Translations under genes and position numbers: made by a program
Part shown: positions 3,745 through 64,000 of the stretch, piece by piece
Layout: every line of letters begins with the position of its first letter
Numbering within the stretch: position 1 is the stretch's first letter
The notes under the pieces: generated by a model
Databases searched by the model: none
What the model saw: only the letters and a program-made list of their open reading frames with translations
Told to the model about the DNA's origin: nothing
DNA from: an archaeon
GTDB taxonomy: Archaea; Nanobdellota; Nanobdellia; SCGC-AAA011-G17; GW2011-AR17
NCBI GenBank assembly: GCA_018656555.1
Contig: JABHZQ010000012.1
Location: forward strand, 28,080-92,079
Reading direction: 5' to 3'
DNA length: 64,000 bases

Positions 3745-5018
3745 GTAAAAAATGGATTTATGTGTTGATTATCTTTCTAATAGTTGCACTTAGATTTACT
3801 TACATGGATGTTAATCATGAAAATTACTATTGGGATGAAGTTGTTTATTTACATTTGGCAGAGAATATAAACAATGGAGGATATTATTCTCATATTGGTG
3901 AAGAGTTTAGGGCTCCGATGTTTCCTTTTTTATTGTCTTTATTTGGCTATGGACATTTCTTTGTATTTTGTTTAGTGGTTATAGGTATTGTTTTAATGTA
4001 CTTTTTAGGGAAAGAGATATTTAATGAAGAGGTAGGGTTGATCTCTGCTGTTATTTTGGGAAGTATGTCTTTGTATTTTTTCTATAGTTTCAAACTTTTA
4101 ACTGAACCCTTAACACTTATACTTCTTATTGGTGCTATGTTGTTATTGTATAAATATGAGAAGCTGAATAAAAATTATCTTTTATATTTGGGAATGATTT
4201 GTGCTGGCTTGGCTGTTTTGACAAGGTATGTTGCTGGAGCTATGGCTTTAAGCATATTTTTGTATTTGTTGTATAAAAAGAAATGGAAGGAAGTCCTTAT
4301 TTCTGGATTAATCTTCTTGGTTGTATTAAGTCCATTGTTTATTTTAGGAATGTTAAATTATGGTAATCCTTTAGGTATGTTAATTTCAAATTTAGTGGAT
4401 AATACTTCAAAACACGGAGGATTATTTTATTATTTTATACATATCTATCCCATACTGGGTTGGTTTATTCCTGCTGCATTTGTATATGGTTTATTTTCTA
4501 AAGAGAACAAAAAACCAATGTTATTTTTTATTATCACTTATTTTATTGTTTTGGAGATTTTAGCTTTGAAATATGATCGGTTCTTTATTCTTATGTTTCC
4601 TTTTATAGCAGTTATTGCAGCAAAAGGAATCTACAAACTTAACAAGAAATACAAGGTGGGAATGTTATTTTTGGCTATTTGGGTTGTTGTTAATCTTACT
4701 GTGGGTTTAGTCCATATTGATATGGATCGGAGTAATACTGCTCTTTTGGTTAATTCTGCAAGTGATTTTGACTTAGAAGGAAATATGGTTTCTAATTCTC
4801 CAGTTTACTTTAGCTATTTTGGAAATCAAGAAGTGGATTATATCCCCATAGTTGAAACAGATATTAGCCATATTGATTATTTTATAATAGACAATTATCA
4901 TCCAAGAGAAGAAGAGTATTACTTGATTTACACAAATTATATAAAAGAGAATGGAACTTTGGTTTACAACATGACAGAAGGACATAGGGAGGTTTTGGTT
5001 TATGCAACGAAGAGCTAG
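3738..5018 (+). CDS. GT-C fold glycosyltransferase (ArnT/PMT-like, GT39/GT83-type)
   Basis: About 11 predicted TM helices. The first extracytoplasmic loop 'YYWDEVVYLHLAENINNGGYY' resembles the ArnT/PMT N-terminal region. A soluble C-terminal domain follows. Confidence 0.5.
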   Translation: MVGKKWIYVLIIFLIVALRFTYMDVNHENYYWDEVVYLHLAENINNGGYYSHIGEEFRAPMFPFLLSLFGYGHFFVFCLVVIGIVLMYFLGKEIFNEEVGLISAVILGSMSLYFFYSFKLLTEPLTLILLIGAMLLLYKYEKLNKNYLLYLGMICAGLAVLTRYVAGAMALSIFLYLLYKKKWKEVLISGLIFLVVLSPLFILGMLNYGNPLGMLISNLVDNTSKHGGLFYYFIHIYPILGWFIPAAFVYGLFSKENKKPMLFFIITYFIVLEILALKYDRFFILMFPFIAVIAAKGIYKLNKKYKVGMLFLAIWVVVNLTVGLVHIDMDRSNTALLVNSASDFDLEGNMVSNSPVYFSYFGNQEVDYIPIVETDISHIDYFIIDNYHPREEEYYLIYTNYIKENGTLVYNMTEGHREVLVYATKS

Positions 5019-5688
5019 TTGGCAATTGTATATATTTTCATTTCTAATTACCTTATTGGTCTTTTCTTTAGGTTTGTCTATTGGACTTGTTATTGAAAAG
5101 GAAAGATTACAAGAAGTGGATAAAATCAATCTAGAACAACAGGTTGGTTTGAAAAGTCTGCAATTGCAACAGTTATACTTAGAATCAGGGGATGCTAATT
5201 GTGATGCTATGAACAAAATTCTAGAAGCCAATATCCAAGACTTGTTTGAATCTATGAACAGAGTTATTGAATTTAATAAAAAATCTATTATTGATGAAGA
5301 GCTCTTTGACTATCAATTGAGAGACTACTTTTTAACAGAAATGCAATTCTTAATGTTTTCCAAAGAGATAGGGGAAATTTGTGGTAGTGATTCAGTAACA
5401 GTAGTATACTTCTATAATGCAGATGAAACAGATGTTCAAGGAGAAGTATTAGATTATTTGAAGAATATCTTTGATGAGAGACTATCTGTATTTTCTTTTG
5501 ATTCTAATTTTGAAGAAGAACCAATGATCGAGGTTTTATTGGAAAGTGAGGGTGTTGAAGTATTTCCTACTTTGATTGTGAATGATGTTGTGTACTCTGG
5601 TGGATTGGGGGCTGAGGAGTTAAAAGAGATTATTTGTGAGGAATTAGAGGAAAAACCAGTAGAATGCCTAATTGAGACCTTACAGTAA
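5002..5688 (+). CDS. N-terminally membrane-anchored acidic extracytoplasmic protein, function unknown
   Basis: A single N-terminal TM (LYIFSFLITLLVFSLGLSIGLVI), then an acidic soluble domain. Confidence 0.4.
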   Translation: MQRRASWQLYIFSFLITLLVFSLGLSIGLVIEKERLQEVDKINLEQQVGLKSLQLQQLYLESGDANCDAMNKILEANIQDLFESMNRVIEFNKKSIIDEELFDYQLRDYFLTEMQFLMFSKEIGEICGSDSVTVVYFYNADETDVQGEVLDYLKNIFDERLSVFSFDSNFEEEPMIEVLLESEGVEVFPTLIVNDVVYSGGLGAEELKEIICEELEEKPVECLIETLQ

Positions 5689-5705
5689 GCTATTTAAACA
5701 GGTAT

Positions 5706-6221
5706 TTGATTTCTAATGTTATGAAAAGGTTATTAATTTTGTTTGTATTGTTATTAATTGTAGGTTGTACTGGACCTTTGCCAGCTACTCCACAAGCTTC
5801 TGGACCTTATACTAATGCATATTATGGCTTTTCAATTGTACCTCCTGAAGGTTGGTATATTGCAGAAGCATCTCCAGGAGTTAGTTTTCTAGGAGATTAT
5901 GACTATTTAGCTAATATTGTTATTTCTGTTGATGGGGATGCTACAACTTTGCTTGAATATTGGGCAGAAGAAAAAGATAGATTAGAAAGATCTGAAATTA
6001 TGGTTGGAACTCAAACAGATCAAGAATTAATGACAACTGTAAATGGATACACTGCTATTTCTGTAGATTATACTTATACTTTAATTGAGGAAGTTAAAGC
6101 TAGAGAGATTATAATTGTTGAGAATGGTAATGCTTATCTTATTACTTACCAAACAGAAGTTGATATGTTTGATGAACATCTTCAAATGTTTGAAGACAGT
6201 TTAGTTACTTTTTCTATTTAA
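5706..6221 (+). CDS. Lipoprotein (lipobox), unknown function
   Basis: N-terminus 'MKRLLILFVLLLIVGCTG' is a signal peptide with a lipobox Cys. Confidence 0.5.
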   Translation: MISNVMKRLLILFVLLLIVGCTGPLPATPQASGPYTNAYYGFSIVPPEGWYIAEASPGVSFLGDYDYLANIVISVDGDATTLLEYWAEEKDRLERSEIMVGTQTDQELMTTVNGYTAISVDYTYTLIEEVKAREIIIVENGNAYLITYQTEVDMFDEHLQMFEDSLVTFSI

Positions 6222-20749: not shown

Positions 20750-21019
20750 TTACCTTTTTTTCTTAACTTTTCTTTTTTTAACTTTTCTTTTTACAGCTTT
20801 TTTCTTCACTTTTCTTTTCTTTGCTTTTTTCTTCACTTTTCTTTTCACTGCTTTTTTCTTTTTAGCTTTTCTTTTCACTGTTTTCTTTTTAGCTTTTCTT
20901 TTCACTGTTTTTTTCTTCACTTTTCTTTTTACAGCTTTCTTTTTCACTTTTCTTTTTACAGCTTTCTTTTTCACTTTTCTTTTCACTGCTTTCTTTTTAG
21001 CTTTTCTTCGAACAACCAT
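20750..21019 (-). CDS. Lysine-rich tandem-repeat protein (approximately 9 copies of the AVKRKVKKK motif), probably nucleic-acid binding
   Basis: 89-aa ORF 'MVVRRKAKKKAVKRKVKKKAVKRKVKKK…'. SD-like 'gaggtgaggtg' lies 8 nt upstream of the ATG on the minus strand. The motif also occurs in the S3 C-terminal tail. Confidence 0.45.
   Translation of the reverse strand: MVVRRKAKKKAVKRKVKKKAVKRKVKKKAVKRKVKKKTVKRKAKKKTVKRKAKKKKAVKRKVKKKAKKRKVKKKAVKRKVKKRKVKKKR
20755..21000. repeat. Imperfect 27-bp tandem repeat array (~9 copies) underlying the Lys-rich ORF
   Basis: Repeated unit 'cttttctttttacagctttctttttca' and variants, contiguous with no spacers. Confidence 0.7.
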
Positions 21020-36246: not shown

Positions 36247-37848
36247 TTGGTTCAAACTAAATTAACTGATGTAAAAAAAGGTAAAGTAAAAGCAGAAGAA
36301 CTTGCAACAAAGCAAAGAGAGATCTCAATTTCTGAATTTTTTACTAAAAATCGGCACTTATTGGGGTTTGACAATCCAAGAAAAGCATTAATTACTTCTG
36401 TAAAAGAGGCTGTTGACAATTCATTAGATGCTTGTGAAGAAATTGGTGTTCTTCCTGAATTATATGTTGAAATAAAACAAACTACAGAAACAAGATATGT
36501 TATGATTATTGAAGATAATGGTCCTGGAATTGTAAAAGAACAAATTCCCAAAATATTTACAAAGTTACTTTATGGTTCAAAATTCTTTAAACTATCCCAA
36601 TCAAGAGGACAACAAGGTATTGGAATTAGTGCTGCTGGTTTGTATGGTCAATTAACAACTGGGAAGCCAGTGAAGATTGTTTCTAAAACAAGTAAGAAAG
36701 GGAAAGCCCATTATTATGAACTATTACTTAACACAAAAACAAATGAACCAGAGATTGTAAAAGAGGCTGTTGAAGAGTGGGAAAAAGATCATGGTACAAG
36801 GATTGAGATTGAGATGGAAGGTAAGTACCATAAAGGGAAGTTGAGTGTTGATGAATATTTACAACTAACAGCAATTTCAAATCCCCATGCTACTATTATT
36901 TACAAATCCCCTATTCAGGATAAACCCATAGAATTTCCAAGAGTTATAAATGAAAGTCCAAAACAAGCTAAAGAAATTAAACCTCATCCATATGGTATTG
37001 AGTTAGGTATTTTAATTAAAATGCTTAAAGATACTAAACAAAAAACATTACAAGGTTTTTTGAAACATGATTTTTGTAGAGTTTCTTCAAAAGTTGCTAA
37101 AGAAATTTCTGATAAGGCAGGTTTGTATGAAAAAGCTAGACCTTCTAGAATTGCAAGACAAGAAGCAGATAATTTATTTCAAGCTATACAAAAAACAAGA
37201 ATAATGACTCCACCAACAGATTGTATTTCTCCAATTGGTGAAGAACAAATGATTAAAGGAATGAAAAAAGAGATTGATGCCGAGTTTTATGCTGCAGTTA
37301 CAAGGAAGCCTAGTGTTTATAGAGGAAATCCATTTGTTATTGAAGCTGCGGTTGCCTATGGTGGAACTTTACCTGGAGATGAGCTAGTTAAGGTGATTAG
37401 ATTTGCTAATCGGGTTCCTCTACAACATCAAGCTGGTGCTTGTGCTATTACTAAATCTACAATGCAAACAGCATGGAGATCTTATGGATTATCTCAATCA
37501 AGAGGTGCTTTGCCTTCTGGTCCGGCAATTATTATGATCCATATGGCAAGTGTTTGGGTTCCATTTACATCAGAATCAAAAGAGGCAATTGCTTCTTATC
37601 CAGAGATTATTAAAGAAGTTAAATCCGCATTACAAGAATGTGGAAGGAAATTAGCAAGCCATGTTAGAAAGATAAAAAAGGTTGAACATGAAAAGAAAAG
37701 AAAGAAAATATTTGAACTTTATATTCAAGAAGTTATTCATTCATTAAATAAAATTGATAAGATAGATAAAGAAAAATTAAAGAAAAAATTAGAAAATATA
37801 GCTGAAGAGAGGACAGTTGGAGAAAATGGTAAACAGAAAAAAGGATGA
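36247..37848 (+). CDS. top6B: DNA topoisomerase VI subunit B
   Basis: GHKL/Bergerat ATPase motifs 'EAVDNSLDA' and 'IIEDNGPGI', then a transducer domain; 533 aa. Confidence 0.85.
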
Positions 37849-38938
37849 AACTAAGCTAAAAATCAGAAGATTAGCTAAAGATGTTGTAAGAGATATTGAT
37901 AAACATAGTAATCCTTCTATTGAAATTCCAATTAGAGCTTTATCTAATGTTCATTTTAATGAAAAAAAGAGTATTATTGAACTAGGAAAGGAAACTCAAC
38001 AAAGATATTTCTTTAATGTTGGTCAAGCAAAGAAATTTATGCAAACTATACTTATTGCAAGTGCTTGTGATGAACTCCTTGATTCAGGTAAAACTACATC
38101 TATTAGGGACCTATACTACATGACTAAGCATACTATTGGTAAGAGTAAAGAAAATACTTTTGATGACCAGGCTGAATCTGATCCTATTATTGAAGATTTA
38201 GAGGTTACAATTGATTCCTTAAGAGAAGAATTAAACTTATTTGCTTCAAATAGGGGAGCCATGGTTGGACCAATGAAAGTAATTGATTATGGTATTAATA
38301 AGAAAGGAGATCAAATTGATTTAGCAAGGATGGGGTCTGGGGGTTGGTCTATACCTTCTATTGTTGAAGAGGATATAATTGAATTCAAAGATTGTAAAGC
38401 TAAGTTTATTTTAATGGTTGAGAAAGATGCGGTTTGGAGAAGGTTAAATGAAGATGGGTTTTGGAAGAAGCATAATTGTTTGTTAATTCATGGTCAAGGG
38501 ATGGCTCCAAGAGGGGTAAGAAGATTATTACATAGGTTAGTAAATGATTACAAACTACCTATGTATGTATTTGTTGACCAGGACCCTTGGGGATTGTATA
38601 TCTATTCTGTTATCAAACAAGGAAGTATTAATTTGGCTTATGAGAGTCAGAGGATGGCAGTACCATCTGCTAAGTTTATTGGGTTGAGTGCTTTTGATAA
38701 AGAGAAATATAAATTACCAGACAATGTTACAATTAAACTAAATGAACAAGATAAGTCAAGAGCTAAACAGATTCTTAATTATCCTTGGTTTCAGAAAAAA
38801 AGTTGGCAAAAGGAATTAAAGCAGATGCTGAAAAATGGTTTTAAGTTAGAGTTAGAGGCTTTAAGTGCTAAAGGAATTAGTTTTGTAACAGACAAATATT
38901 TGCCTGAAAAACTTAAAAATAAAGATTGGTTGGATTAA
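37817..38938 (+). CDS. top6A: DNA topoisomerase VI subunit A (Spo11-like)
   Basis: Winged-helix region and a Toprim domain '[10 protein letters not shown]…[16 protein letters not shown]…VFVDQDPWG'; overlaps top6B by 32 nt. Confidence 0.85.
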
Positions 38939-40800: not shown

Positions 40801-40919
40801 AAAAACTTAATATCTTATATTTAAACCTTTCTATGTTTATTAACTAAAAAGTGAGAACATTCTGGGATTTAGAGTCAATAGAAACGTTTTTAAAGCAAAT
40901 CAATTTTAAGGAAATTTAT

Positions 40920-40992
40920 GTCCCTGTAGCTCAGTTGGTGGAGCATTCGGCTGTTAACCGAAAGGTCGCAAGTTCGAGTCTTGCCGGGGACG
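40920..40992 (+). tRNA. tRNA-Asn (anticodon GTT)
   Basis: Folds as acceptor GTCCCTG/CGGGGAC, D-arm GCTC/GAGC, anticodon stem TTCGG/CCGAA with loop CTGTTAA, T-arm GCAAG-TTCGAGT-CTTGC, discriminator G. No encoded CCA. Confidence 0.85.
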
Positions 40993-40995
40993 TAT

Positions 40996-41070
40996 GGCCC
41001 CGTGGCTTAGCCTGGCTAGAGCACTCGACTGATAATCGAGAGGTCCTGGGTTCAAATCCCGGCGGGGCCA
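40996..41070 (+). tRNA. tRNA-Ile (anticodon GAT)
   Basis: Acceptor GGCCCCG/CGGGGCC, anticodon stem CTCGA/TCGAG with loop CTGATAA, T-arm CTGGG-TTCAAAT-CCCGG, discriminator A. Lies 3 nt after tRNA-Asn. Confidence 0.85.
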
Positions 41071-41077
41071 GATTCTA

Positions 41078-60196: not shown

Positions 60197-60639
60197 TGGC
60201 ATGGAATTCGTTTTTAGATCCTGTAATGGGACCAGTTATGAATTTACCTAATCCTTGGAATCTTTTATTGATTAGTTTTATTCTTACAGCTATAATTACC
60301 CTACTGTATAAGTTTCTAACTGATCAAAAGCTGATGAAGGAACTTAAAGCTGAGATGAAAGGTTATCAAAAAGAGATGAAAGATTTTAAAGATGATCCTA
60401 AAAAAATGATGGAAGTTCAGAAACTGGCTATGGAAAAGAACATGAAATACATGTTGCAAAGTCTGAAGCCTACTTTGTTTACTTTTATTCCAATTATTTT
60501 TATCTTTAGTTGGTTAAGAACTTATTATACAGATTTGGGTAATCCAGATGTGTTACTGGGATTAGGATGGATTTGGATTTATATTATATTCTCAATAGTT
60601 GTAAGTTTAACTCTTAGAAAGGTATTAAAGATTCATTAA
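60196..60639 (+). CDS. DUF106-family membrane protein (archaeal YidC/Oxa1/EMC3-like insertase)
   Basis: Three TM helices with a central coiled-coil cytosolic loop 'KLMKELKAEMKGYQKEMKDFKDDPKKMMEVQKLAMEKNMK'. Its position right after secY is the canonical archaeal one. Confidence 0.65.
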   Translation: MAWNSFLDPVMGPVMNLPNPWNLLLISFILTAIITLLYKFLTDQKLMKELKAEMKGYQKEMKDFKDDPKKMMEVQKLAMEKNMKYMLQSLKPTLFTFIPIIFIFSWLRTYYTDLGNPDVLLGLGWIWIYIIFSIVVSLTLRKVLKIH

Positions 60640-60972
60640 GGTGTTATTGTCCCACCATACCTTGCAATTCTACAATAATATAATGCTTTATCACTCGGGG
60701 ATTGGTAGGGACAGGAATGTTTGCTCAATAAACAATAGTCTATTCTATCAGGACCAGTTAGTACTTTCTTTCCAGTATGGAGACAGTCATTTACTTGATT
60801 ATCCAAGCTTTTCCAATCAATTTGTGGTAATCTTTTAATATTTAGAAGGAGCGCTCATCACTATTTTTCACTCCCTGCATTATTGAGCAATAAGATTGAA
60901 AGTTGGAGTTTTATTTATAAGCTTTTTTGATAGGACGAAAGGTTTATAAAGGGAACAAATTTTTGTGTGTGT

Positions 60973-61236
60973 ATGCCAAAAGCAAGATTACGAAATAAAA
61001 CATTTAGAAAAGTTAGGGTCAAAGTACCTACTGGTGTGACTACACACTATAAGAGGAGAACCCCTGCAAAGGCAAAATGTGCTAAGTGTGGAAAGGCATT
61101 ACTAGCTGTACCAAATAAAATTCCATCTAAGATGCAAAATATGCCAAAAACAGCCAAGAGACCAGAAAGGCCTTATGGTGGAAATTTATGTTCTAAATGT
61201 ATGAGAATAGTTATTAAAGAGGGAATTAGAAAATGA
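60973..61236 (+). CDS. rpl34e: Ribosomal protein L34e
   Basis: 'MPKARLRNKTFRKVRVKVPTG…CAKCGK…' L34e Zn ribbon. The ORF track's 2-codon upstream extension is unlikely. Confidence 0.8.
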   Translation: MPKARLRNKTFRKVRVKVPTGVTTHYKRRTPAKAKCAKCGKALLAVPNKIPSKMQNMPKTAKRPERPYGGNLCSKCMRIVIKEGIRK

Positions 61237-61574
61237 TAGAGATTGGAAGAGTTTGTGTTAAGATTGCAGGTAGAGATGCTGGAAGGAAGGCAGTTATAAT
61301 TGATATTCTTGATGATAATTATGTTATGATAGATGGTGAAGTTAGAAGGAGAAAATGTAATATTGCACATTTAGAACCCTTAAAAGAAAAAGTTGAAATT
61401 AAAAAAAATGCTTCTTCAGATGAAGTTTGTAAGATCCTAAATATTAAACCCAAAAAAAGTAAAGATAAGAAAGAGAAAACAGAGAGACCAAGAAGAAAGA
61501 GAATTAATAAAAAAGAGTTAGCAAAAGAGGAAGATAAAAAGGGAAAGAAAGCTAAGAAAAATGAATCAAAATAA
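61233..61574 (+). CDS. rpl14e: Ribosomal protein L14e
   Basis: KOW-like 'IEIGRVCVKIAGRDAGRKAVIIDILDDNYVMIDG' with a basic C-terminal tail. Confidence 0.75.
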   Translation: MIEIGRVCVKIAGRDAGRKAVIIDILDDNYVMIDGEVRRRKCNIAHLEPLKEKVEIKKNASSDEVCKILNIKPKKSKDKKEKTERPRRKRINKKELAKEEDKKGKKAKKNESK

Positions 61575-61968
61575 TGTTCTTGAAGGTTATCAAAATATGC
61601 AGGAGTTCAATAATCAACTTCAAGCAATGCAACAACAAGTAGATGTTCTTGAAAAACAAACTGTTGAATTAAATACTGTAAAAGAAGGCCTAGATAGTAT
61701 TGAGCAATGTAATGGTGATGAGGAAATTTTAATTCCCTTAGGTTCAGGTATTTTTTTGAAGGGGGGAATTAAAGATAAAGCCCAAGTTACTATGAATGTT
61801 GGTGCAGGGATTGTTGTAGAAAAAAGTATTTCTGGAGCCTTGAAATTAGTTGAAGAACAAATTGTTAAAATGGGCAGTTTTAAAGAAGAATTGACCAAAG
61901 AAATGGGTGAAATTTCTATGACCCTGCAAAAATTGCAACTAGAGATGCAAAAAACACAGAAAGAATAG
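61561..61968 (+). CDS. pfdA: Prefoldin alpha subunit
   Basis: Coiled coil, two beta hairpins ('ILIPLGSGIFLKG', 'VTMNVGAGIVVEKS'), coiled coil. Confidence 0.7.
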   Translation: MNQNNVLEGYQNMQEFNNQLQAMQQQVDVLEKQTVELNTVKEGLDSIEQCNGDEEILIPLGSGIFLKGGIKDKAQVTMNVGAGIVVEKSISGALKLVEEQIVKMGSFKEELTKEMGEISMTLQKLQLEMQKTQKE

Positions 61969-61999
61969 ATAAAAGCTTAAATATTTCTTTTGATTATGG

Positions 62000-63310
62000 T
62001 TGATTATGGTTGATAGCACTTATCTTAGATTCTATTCTAGGAAGGAAGTTCAAGAGAAAATCTTAGAATTAGCTAAAGATAGAGAGATAGGAGTTATGTT
62101 TAACCAGGGATTTGGTAAGAGACCAGATATACTTCAGTTTCCAGGAGATATTATGGAATTAGCAAGGAAAGGGGCTACTTCTTTTCATGTATCTGAGGAG
62201 AGATGGAAAGAACCCTTAGATTTAGTGCCAGGTATGACTAAGAGAAGTCTAGATGAAAATAGAAAAGGATGGGATTTGATATTAGATATTGATACTATCT
62301 ATTGGGATTATGCAAAATGGACTGCTTATTATCTTATAGAAGCTTTAAGATTTAATGATATTCATTCTATCTCGGTTAAATTTTCTGGTTCAAAAGGATT
62401 TCATTTAGGTATTCCTTTTGAGGCTTTTCCCGACGAGGTTAATGGTATTGAAACAAAAAACTTGTTTCCAGATGGTCTAAGAGTTATTGCTCTATACCTT
62501 CAAGAAATGATTAGAGATATGTTGGTAGCAAAGATTTTGGAGAAGAATAATATATCTGGTTTAATAAGTAGTACAGGGAAGAAAAGGGATGAACTTGTGA
62601 AGGATGGGCAATTAGATCCTTTTGTTTTAATTGATATTGATACTGTTTTGATATCTAATAGACATTTGTTTAGATGTGCTTATTCCCTCCATGAAAAAAC
62701 TCAACTAGTTTCATTACCAATTGATCCAGATAGTGTTTTAAAATTTGAGAAAAGTTTTGCAGATCCAGAAAAAATAAAAGCGTTTAGAGGTTTTTTGGAA
62801 AGAAAGAATGTGAATAAGAATGAAGCTAGAAATTTATTAATTCAGGCATTTGATTGGCATTCTAGACAGAATCTAAAAAATAAATCTATTGAAATTAAAA
62901 TAGACAGAGAATTTAAACTTCCAGAGAATGCAATTGATGAAGAGTTTTTTCCTGCATGTGTTACAAAGATCTTAGAAGGGAAGATGGAAGATGGGAAGAA
63001 AAGAGCTTTGTTTATTTTATGTAATTTTCTTAGGAAGATGGGTTGGAAATGGGATGATATTGAAAAAAGAGTTAAGGAATGGAATGACAAAAATCCAGAT
63101 CCATTAAAAGAAGCTTACCTTCGGGGGCAAGTATCTTGGCATAGAAAAAGGAAGGATGGAATTTTACCCCCTAATTGTTCTAATTCAATGTATTATAAAG
63201 ATTTGAGAATTTGTTGTAATAGTAAAGTTTGTGAAAGATATAAGAATCCTGTAAATTTTGCTTTGAAACAGTCTAAAAGAAAAAAAGTGAGGAAGAAGAT
63301 TAAAAAATGA
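62000..63310 (+). CDS. priS: DNA primase catalytic subunit PriS with a C-terminal Cys-containing helical PriL-CTD-like extension (fused compact primase)
   Basis: PriS catalytic motifs 'LILDIDT' (metal-binding DxD) and 'SGSKGFHL'. The C-terminal ~150 aa is helical with Cys residues (PACVTK…, CNFLRK…, NCSN…CCNSKVCERY). The start is ambiguous (TTG 62000 or ATG 62006) inside a 10-nt tandem duplication 'tgattatggt' x2. Confidence 0.65.
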   Translation: MIMVDSTYLRFYSRKEVQEKILELAKDREIGVMFNQGFGKRPDILQFPGDIMELARKGATSFHVSEERWKEPLDLVPGMTKRSLDENRKGWDLILDIDTIYWDYAKWTAYYLIEALRFNDIHSISVKFSGSKGFHLGIPFEAFPDEVNGIETKNLFPDGLRVIALYLQEMIRDMLVAKILEKNNISGLISSTGKKRDELVKDGQLDPFVLIDIDTVLISNRHLFRCAYSLHEKTQLVSLPIDPDSVLKFEKSFADPEKIKAFRGFLERKNVNKNEARNLLIQAFDWHSRQNLKNKSIEIKIDREFKLPENAIDEEFFPACVTKILEGKMEDGKKRALFILCNFLRKMGWKWDDIEKRVKEWNDKNPDPLKEAYLRGQVSWHRKRKDGILPPNCSNSMYYKDLRICCNSKVCERYKNPVNFALKQSKRKKVRKKIKK

Positions 63311-63594
63311 CTGAAGGAACAGAAGATAATTTTACTTACTTTTTAATGACTTTAAGTGGGTATGCTGTTACAAGGGCTGTGGATGAGAGTGTGGGGGTTG
63401 GTTATTATCACATTATTGATCCAAGAAAAATAGAAGAAGGAGAACCTCTTGAAATTAAGCAAGCATTTCATTTGGGCCCATTTAGACATGAAACCTTAGA
63501 AGGTATAATGGGAGAGTTAAAAGAATTTGTTGAAAGAGAGAAGACAGGGACGAGGTTTTTAGGTGGAGTATTTCATGGCCCAGAAAATTTATGA
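63307..63594 (+). CDS. Hypothetical protein (95 aa) coupled between the primase and the Cas4-like nuclease
   Basis: ATGA overlaps at both ends; no recognisable motif. Confidence 0.3.
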   Translation: MTEGTEDNFTYFLMTLSGYAVTRAVDESVGVGYYHIIDPRKIEEGEPLEIKQAFHLGPFRHETLEGIMGELKEFVEREKTGTRFLGGVFHGPENL

Positions 63595-64000
63595 TGTTAA
63601 GTGTTACTTATTTGTGTTCATATCTTTATTGCCCTAGAAAGTTATATCTTAATTTAGTTCTTGGTTTACAAGAAAAAGTAAAAGATGTTACAATTAAGGG
63701 GAAGATAAGACATGGTGCTTATGAACTTGCTTCTAGAAGAGAAAAAGAAGTGATTGTTGGTTTAGATTCTAAAAAAAGATATGAAGAGTTTGAGATGGAT
63801 TTTAGGAGAATGTATAATAAGGTTTTGATGTGGTTGATTTCACAAAATAAAAAAGAGGTTGATTCTGTGGGTTTGAAGACATTAGATTTGTATAAAGAAT
63901 TATGGCCTTTATTTGTTATTGAATGTAGGGAAAGAAGTCTAGAAGTTTTTGAGTTTGCACAGAAAAATAGTGTTTTTGGAGAGGATCTTTGGTTTAAGTT
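63591..64000 (+). CDS. Cas4-like / DUF83 RecB-family nuclease (5' portion; continues beyond the window)
   Basis: The translation 'MMLSVTYLCSYLYCPRKLYLNLVLGLQEKVKDVTIKGKIRHGAYE…' carries the Cas4 N-terminal YxCPRK(L/F)(Y/W) motif followed by G…H. Not in the ORF track because it runs off the window end. Confidence 0.55.
   Translation, partial: MMLSVTYLCSYLYCPRKLYLNLVLGLQEKVKDVTIKGKIRHGAYELASRREKEVIVGLDSKKRYEEFEMDFRRMYNKVLMWLISQNKKEVDSVGLKTLDLYKELWPLFVIECRERSLEVFEFAQKNSVFGEDLWFK

Follow-up and report, generated by a model that had tools for sequence, protein, structure and literature searches.

Layout of the locus

The window analysed here is a 64,000-nucleotide (nt) stretch of contig JABHZQ010000012.1 from an archaeon (assembly GCA_018656555.1). 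At its end, the ORF list and translation place three open reading frames (ORFs) in a row on the plus strand: a replicative primase with its PriS and PriL parts fused in a single chain, a small ORF, and a nuclease of the solo-Cas4 family. Coordinates are given in window numbering, primase residues follow the numbering of the 434-amino-acid (aa) protein, and L-numbers denote the related loci and contigs that we compared. The primase gene (434 aa) occupies 62006..63310 (+), as supported by the ORF list, a 434-aa call on the identical contig L085, homologues and an AF2 model. It is followed by a 95-aa ORF at 63307..63594 (+) and by the nuclease gene at 63591..64000 (+), of which the window holds the first 136 of 267 codons, the remainder lying past its end. 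Each junction is an ATGA stop/start overlap (63307-63310 between primase and small ORF, 63591-63594 between small ORF and nuclease), which couples the 95-aa ORF at both ends, as an earlier sequence-only reading of this DNA had described.

That reading gave the primase 436 aa. The frame is indeed open over 62000-63310 and counts 436 aa from a TTG at 62000, but the ATG at 62006, which gives 434 aa, is the likelier start. It is favoured because the identical contig L085 has its gene call there, the primases of relatives start with the equivalent methionine, and a B-recognition-element (BRE)/TATA-like element lies 23 nt upstream. An exact database look-up of the 436-aa, TTG-started protein returned no match because public gene calls begin at ATG 62006; exact look-ups with a 96%-identical primase homologue and with the small ORF did return matches. 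The longer frame traces to a perfect 10-bp tandem duplication, TTGATTATGG in 2.5 copies at 61990..62014 (+; Tandem Repeats Finder), which spans the primase start and yields an out-of-frame ATG at 61996, the in-frame TTG 62000 and ATG 62006. The ORF thus looked like 436 aa because the duplication had generated an in-frame TTG. The 96%-identical relative L001 carries no tandem duplication at its primase start.

The BRE/TATA-like element, AAAAGC TTAAATA, occupies 61971..61983 (+), and a 'GCTTAAATA / GCTTATATA' element also recurs 20-25 nt 5' of the primase ATG in L001 and L005-L009. From its position 23 nt 5' of the ATG, we infer that the primase has its own promoter and a separate, probably leaderless, transcript start. 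An Rfam search of 60500-64000 returned nothing credible.

Domains of the primase and the nuclease

Residues 1-270 of the primase (62006..62815, +) form the PriS (AEP) catalytic domain. It matches PF01896 above the gathering score (E 3.3e-6, residues 110-242) and carries motif I (D94xD96, 62285-62293), motif II (S127-H133, 62384-62404) and motif III (D212, 62639-62641), all on the plus strand. In an alignment of 37 homologues, D94/D96, S127, G128, G131, H133 and D212 are invariant. The sequence-only reading had recognised a PriS core by its DIDT and SGSKGFHL strings, and rightly so: these are the invariant columns D94/D96 and S127, G128, G131 and H133. The AF2 model (mean pLDDT 88.8) consists of a PriS alpha/beta domain, a long helix (residues 275-297) and a helical C-terminal domain (CTD), and Foldseek assigned it a probability of 1.00 against human Pri1, yeast PriS, the Pyrococcus furiosus primase, Prim-PolC and the LigD polymerase domain.

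The second part, residues 271-434 (62816..63307, +), comprises the linker helix and the PriL Fe-S domain. Pfam gave a sub-threshold PF04104 (PriL) match over residues 272-396, and the NCBIfam PriL match covers residues 292-424. The PriL-like character of this module had been suggested before; a profile of the CTD alone matches Pyrococcus abyssi PriL (9f26_B) with E 1.6e-4, and the 'FPxC' and 'PPNC...C...C' segments, with all four cysteines, align to the P. abyssi PriL cysteines. The C-terminal module is therefore a PriL-CTD fold and not a plasmid-type helix bundle. The four cysteines stand where PriL holds its [4Fe-4S] ligands, and cluster binding is predicted for C318 (62957-62959, in FFPAC), C391 (63176-63178, in PPNC), C403/C404 (63212-63217, in RICC) and C409 (63230-63232, in KVC), all on the plus strand. 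Across the 37 homologues C318, C391 and C409 are invariant and C403/404 nearly so. The earlier list of cysteines needs one exchange: the cysteine of CNFLRK is not conserved and the true first ligand, C318, had been omitted, while C391, C403/C404 and C409 stand.

Primase fusion was first noted by Raymann et al. 2014 (PMC3914693), and fused priS-priL has been described as a synapomorphy of Undinarchaeota and DPANN cluster 2 (PMC7414124). The sequence-only reading had taken the arrangement to be confined to mobile elements and a handful of very small archaeal genomes. Our database search instead found over 3,586 homologues, some 430 aa in length, in Woesearchaeota and Nanoarchaeota metagenome-assembled genomes, many with precomputed PriS and PriL hits, and at least 592 loci in GTDB species genomes encode a relative. 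The fused primase is thus not new: it is one more member of the standard form of DPANN cluster 2, textbook for its lineage, and adds nothing beyond another sequence. It is the cell's housekeeping, chromosomal primase. No second AEP or PriL-CTD was found within the window or in an extra 10 kb downstream, and it is presumably the sole primase of the genome, as has been described for its lineage (PMC7414124, PMC10250227).

The closest characterised counterpart is NEQ395 of Nanoarchaeum equitans. The purified protein is an active, sequence-specific monomeric primase whose [4Fe-4S] cluster is dispensable in vitro, and the N. equitans genome holds no other AEP (PMC10250227). Both proteins join an AEP domain through a long linker helix to a four-cysteine PriL-CTD, both lack the PriL N-terminal domain, both are encoded on the chromosome, and their cysteine spacing is similar (318/391/403-404/409 in the window primase, 289/364/376/384 in NEQ395). 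The window primase differs in coming from a mesophilic, low-GC lineage of Woesearchaeota type, and the likeness is drawn from architecture and cysteine spacing.

Within the wider family, two fused primases from a distant DPANN lineage (L092 6799-8004 and L093 6423-7997) have lost all four Fe-S cysteines of the PriL-CTD, with 'YPPS...' and 'PPNYDK...' as examples at the lost positions; the L091 primase of the same lineage retains them. This loss is natural evidence for a dispensable Fe-S cluster, in agreement with the NEQ395 mutant data. In the L093 primase the PriS part is also enlarged by about 100 inserted aa that include several CxxC pairs, and the L095 primase (4410-6008) is similarly long at 532 aa.

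The heterodimeric PriS + PriL primases (P. abyssi 9f26, human Pri1/p58C, yeast PriL-CTD 6di2) have the same catalytic motifs and PriS fold, and the same PriL Fe-S domain fold and ligands. Unlike them, the window primase is one polypeptide, its PriS part lacks the Zn-knuckle cysteines, and it has no PriL N-terminal domain, which in the heterodimers docks onto PriS. In the monomeric plasmid and viral primases with helix-bundle domains, such as pRN1 ORF904, RSF1010 RepB' and pTN2 PolpTN2 (PMC3973330), one polypeptide likewise links an AEP domain to a helical domain for initiation. Another likeness is to CAPP (CRISPR-associated Prim-Pol), whose Prim-Pol domain was among the Foldseek matches of the window PriS part and in which an AEP enzyme is also genetically linked to CRISPR-type adaptation proteins. 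CAPP, however, is a Prim-Pol-clade enzyme inside cas operons with Cas1/Cas2, whereas the window AEP is a replicative PriS-PriL without cas1/cas2 or an array.

The 136-residue nuclease fragment in the window stays, on its own, below Pfam and NCBIfam family thresholds. We took the full protein from contig L085, which matches the window without a difference over 10,694 nt (100% identity) and extends past it. The complete nuclease is 267 aa long and matches TIGR00372 (cas4) with 104.5 bits against a cut-off of 65, all its best PADLOC matches are Cas4 models, and the near-identical L001 nuclease matches PF01930 (E 5e-20). It carries the RecB motifs D158, E171-x-K173 and Q189...Y193 and the Fe-S cysteines C14 (codon at 63630-63632) and C255-x2-C258-x5-C264. 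Among 15 subfamily members, down to 27% identity, D158, E171, K173, Q189, Y193, C14 and C255 are invariant, C258 is nearly so, and C264 is present in the window nuclease and most members. These features bear out the earlier Cas4/DUF83-like label and identify the protein, by its motifs, as a genuine Cas4-family Fe-S PD-(D/E)XK enzyme. About 85 residues that the 180-aa Cas4 models lack are inserted after its N-terminal cysteine motif, ahead of the nuclease core. Its ratio of nonsynonymous to synonymous substitution (dN/dS) is 0.067, indicating strong purifying selection like that on its housekeeping neighbours.

No cas1/cas2 was present among the genes called on L085 (10 kb downstream) or L001, and no CRISPR-like repeat array was found in the 64-kb window; we therefore refer to the nuclease as a solo-Cas4. 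DPANN genomes typically have solo-Cas4 and no CRISPR-Cas (Hudaiberdiev et al. 2017, PMC5704561); most are reported to encode it, and its role is an acknowledged open question in DPANN and in the candidate phyla radiation (CPR) (PMC5704561). Published solo-Cas4 proteins (PMC5704561), including Methanosarcina mazei Solo-Cas4 (PMC12501428), are also of the Cas4/DUF83 type, with four Fe-S cysteines and no cas1/cas2 or array. Compared with them, the window subfamily is about 265 aa long, has the extra 85 or so residues and keeps every RecB motif.

Linkage of primase and Cas4 across relatives

The sequence-only reading regarded a primase-Cas4 operon as unusual. In fact the pairing is conserved in the clade of the window primase and recurs in a distant one. 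In clade A, defined as primases at least about 56% identical to the window primase, the order primase-small ORF(s)-Cas4 is found in L001-L004, L005-L008 and L096. Mre11-Rad50 usually comes next after Cas4: L001, L005, L008 and L096 have the one-strand order primase-small-Cas4-(0 to 3 small genes)-Mre11-Rad50, and L009 keeps the primase and Mre11-Rad50 without a Cas4 between them. At least 14 pairs of primase and Cas4 matches had a longest contig of equal size, several of these contigs being just 3-6 kb long.

Clade B, four contigs of a distant lineage, presents the pair in different surroundings: a divergently transcribed PCNA gene, then primase, Cas4 and unrelated surface-protein genes. Primase and Cas4 overlap by 4-8 nt in three of these loci and are separated by a 3-nt gap in L093. 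Compared with the window proteins, the clade B Cas4 is 27-30% identical and the primase about 43%. We considered whether the large genes after the clade B Cas4 might be divergent Rad50/Mre11 and rejected this, as they resemble surface or membrane proteins; only in clade A is Mre11-Rad50 linked to the pair. Two other DPANN lineages have the subfamily member at the head of a series Cas4-PRC barrel (87 aa)-RFC small subunit (L089 8001-10409; L090 8001-10151). What the members of this Cas4 subfamily have in common is a setting among replication genes, with the primase as the most frequent neighbour. The recurrence of primase, PCNA and RFC as neighbours is a context unreported in PMC5704561 and PMC12501428, the papers on NEQ395 and the DPANN fusion (PMC10250227; PMC7414124; PMC3914693) do not discuss solo-Cas4 as a genomic partner, and our literature search for a primase-Cas4 link in DPANN found no description.

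The 95-aa ORF between the two genes behaves differently from both. An exhaustive HMMER search of 1.84 billion proteins returned two representative homologues (68% and 58% identity), and no Pfam, NCBIfam, PADLOC or PHROG match was obtained. Word-index search, HMMER and jackhmmer against same-slot ORFs, used to seek a wider family, gave genus-level homologues only. Nucleotide identity to L001 is 64-78% across the ORF versus 84-99% in its flanks, dN is 0.34 versus about 0.03 in the neighbours, and dS is 1.4 versus 0.2-0.7. With a dN/dS of 0.24 and this high dN, the ORF is therefore coding and constrained, and its divergence reflects either a rate about ten times that of its neighbours or exchange by recombination. 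It is a fast-evolving orphan restricted to its genus.

Elsewhere in clade A the same slot holds one or two small ORFs of 79-120 aa that differ by genus (L005 2187-2426; L006 11409-11771; L007 3436-4229; L008 2623-3360; L009 2748-3011, there after the primase). Those of L007 and L008 are tandem paralogues with a common C-terminal 'EEGF...W.Y.P' motif. None of the L005-L009 slot ORFs is detectably related to the window ORF by jackhmmer; a kinship suggested by a visual 'GF..W.Y' likeness at the C-terminus had no statistical support and was rejected. The small ORF has the look of a variable insert in a primase-Cas4 pair that is otherwise tightly joined, because primase and Cas4 overlap or nearly abut in clade B and the clade A slot holds differing ORFs. 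As to function, a lineage-specific modulator is our guess.

We read the locus, with a probability of about 0.7, as a chromosomal replication/repair transcription unit of a DPANN archaeon of Woesearchaeota type, composed of a housekeeping fused primase, a small ORF and a solo-Cas4 nuclease. Transcription would start from the BRE/TATA element 23 nt 5' of the ATG and give a leaderless mRNA for the three genes, on which the ATGA overlaps would couple translation from primase to 95-aa protein to 267-aa nuclease. In the primase, the PriS domain with its catalytic acidic residues would polymerise the RNA primer, and the long helix would tether it to the PriL-CTD with its predicted four-cysteine [4Fe-4S] site. 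While the dinucleotide forms, the PriL-CTD would bind the template together with the initiating nucleotide, as it does in NEQ395 and the heterodimeric primases. The nuclease has no part in CRISPR adaptation here; to judge from neighbourhood and homology, it probably trims 5' ends or flaps at replication forks in the manner of Dna2/AddB. Its task may be primer removal or the processing of broken or stalled forks, and in clade A it may supply substrates to Mre11-Rad50, whose genes follow shortly downstream. Any physical interaction between these proteins is likewise conjectural.

Several observations weigh against this reading. Among 80 sampled GTDB Woesearchaeota loci, Cas4 lies directly downstream of the primase in 4 and is not adjacent to it in the remaining 76 (primases 44-57% identical), so the pairing is often lost. 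Two sampled members of the subfamily adjoin a methyltransferase or DNA-alkylation repair gene rather than replication genes, and gene overlaps in small, compact genomes can arise without functional coupling. In the window strain, the Cas4 block and Mre11-Rad50 do not form one operon, because a 496-aa gene on the minus strand parts them. Some DPANN solo-Cas4 genes have moreover been linked to restriction-modification neighbourhoods (PMC5704561).

The linkage could instead centre on Mre11-Rad50: the nuclease would be the 5'-3' end-resection enzyme of a double-strand-break repair cluster, in the place that NurA, with HerA, occupies in the mre11-rad50 operons of other archaea, and the primase would lie upstream by chance. 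On L085 the nuclease is followed by a 157-aa ORF, the 496-aa minus-strand orphan, a 128-aa ORF, Mre11, Rad50 and a 479-aa probable surface protein. Mre11 and Rad50, adjacent and co-oriented 2.7 kb downstream of the nuclease (L085 13776-16999, outside the window), are divergent members of their families (NCBIfam E 5e-29 and 3.5e-45; about 100-150 bits versus equivalog cut-offs of 500-1000), and the Rad50 homologue is short at 679 aa. An end-resection role would fit the one-strand order of clade A, the lack of a HerA or NurA domain in any gene of the 10 kb downstream, and the relationship of Cas4-family enzymes to AddB, RecB and Dna2 (PMC5704561); a published account of a DPANN-specific HerA/NurA loss was not found. 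It sits poorly with clade B, where the PCNA/primase-Cas4 unit is followed by surface or membrane proteins and no Mre11-Rad50, and with the lineages in which the nuclease is paired with RFC. The opposite-strand gene in the window strain also speaks against it, as does L009, where primase and Mre11-Rad50 persist with no Cas4 between them. We consider this account unlikely, although it has the best claim of the alternatives. Somewhat less probable still is that the adjacency means nothing, compaction of a reduced DPANN genome having packed unrelated housekeeping genes together with ATGA overlaps as by-products. The whole region is a dense same-strand string with many overlaps of 1-8 nt, for example among the ribosomal protein (r-protein) genes, and the 76 unpaired Woesearchaeota loci fit such a view. 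Yet the overlapping or nearly abutting pair is also found where the flanks differ wholly (prefoldin and r-proteins versus PCNA) and Cas4 is as little as 27-30% identical, and in two lineages where the nuclease lies away from the primase it adjoins another replication gene, RFC.

Cas4 is also a component of defence systems, and the solo-Cas4, perhaps with the hypervariable small ORF, might be an anti-virus module beside the primase by chance. The PADLOC matches, the DPANN solo-Cas4 genes seen beside restriction-modification systems (PMC5704561) and the pace of the small ORF, with differing slot ORFs among relatives as in arms-race genes, would be compatible with that. We nevertheless find it improbable: apart from the nuclease, no defence or cas gene and no CRISPR array turned up in the locus or window, genes for replication, repair and translation surround it, and the low dN/dS of the nuclease is that of a housekeeping gene. 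The sequence-only reading had also raised an element-derived replicon, that is, a primase-nuclease module of a provirus or plasmid integrated in the chromosome. Plasmids and viruses of archaea commonly encode monomeric PriS-helix-bundle primases as well as nucleases of Cas4-like type (PMC10250227, PMC5704561), and the window primase has a weak match to a PHROG primase (E 2.6e-7 over 60 residues). Against this, L30, L15, SecY, an EMC3/TMCO1-like gene, L34e, L14e and prefoldin alpha lie directly upstream of the primase, Mre11 and Rad50 lie downstream, and no integrase or virion genes flank the locus (L085, L001). The order r-protein...prefoldin-primase is common to the 96% relative (357-kb contig) and a 59% relative (372-kb contig), and 23 of the 80 GTDB Woesearchaeota loci have the same r-protein/prefoldin string upstream. 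GC content is not distinctive (0.318 at the locus, 0.29-0.35 across the window), and the primase has no relatives in IMG/VR, INPHARED or PLSDB. The locus is core archaeal chromosome and not a mobile element, and the mobile-element reading is effectively excluded.

Returning to a replication/repair unit as the preferred reading, a more specific role for the nuclease can be sketched tentatively; we regard it as possible and would not yet expect it to hold. The subfamily of about 265 aa may be a replisome-associated nuclease, a minimal, helicase-less counterpart of Dna2 with which genome-reduced archaea process broken forks or 5' flaps that contain primers. This is suggested because the coupled pair is kept in two deeply diverged lineages with different flanks and because RFC is the neighbour elsewhere. 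At replication forks Dna2 processes 5' flaps, and it also takes part in end resection. The iron-staple domains of Dna2 and AddB are homologous PD-(D/E)XK nucleases with a 4-Cys Fe-S cluster, and Pfam Dna2 (PF08696) gave weak to significant matches within the window subfamily. Unlike Dna2, the window nuclease has no helicase domain and is much smaller, and the functional analogy is drawn from gene neighbourhood alone. The hypervariable small ORFs of clade A could then be lineage-specific adaptors or regulators of the primase-nuclease partnership.

What is new here is modest: the recurrent pairing of primase and solo-Cas4 and the hypervariable ORF wedged within it. The recurrent coupling to the primase, and elsewhere to PCNA or RFC, leads to a testable hypothesis for solo-Cas4 as a replication-fork or 5'-end-processing nuclease. 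If true, this would be a first concrete cellular role for the solo-Cas4 proteins of most DPANN genomes. It would also bear on the recruitment of Cas4 into CRISPR adaptation from a replication/repair ancestor and show how minimal archaeal replisomes make up for lost components.

Other features of the window and its surroundings

Elsewhere in the window we found genes for Topoisomerase VI subunit B, MetRS, SRP54, L3 and sugar-phosphate mutases. The Topoisomerase VI subunit B gene (36247-37848) overlaps a 373-aa ORF at 37817-38938, presumably subunit A, and this pair of genes (36247-38938) is further evidence for core chromosome. The 496-aa orphan (L085 11769-13259, minus strand, about 1.5 kb past the window end) has no family match and is missing at that position in L001.

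Upstream of the primase, a single-copy insert of 265 nt (60636-60900) follows the EMC3/TMCO1-like gene and precedes L34e. It is present in the window and in the identical contigs L085, L086 and L088 and absent in L001; it has no Rfam match and no other copy in the window, and may represent a small non-coding RNA or what is left of an element. An otherwise gene-free gap at 20750-21019 (minus strand) holds an extremely lysine-rich ORF of 89 aa with about nine copies of a 27-nt repeat, ((K)KKAVKRKV)n, which may encode a small basic nucleic-acid-binding protein or be repeat DNA only. Finally, tRNA-Asn(GTT) and tRNA-Ile(GAT) lie one nucleotide apart at 40919-41071, between a LysM-domain gene and MetRS.

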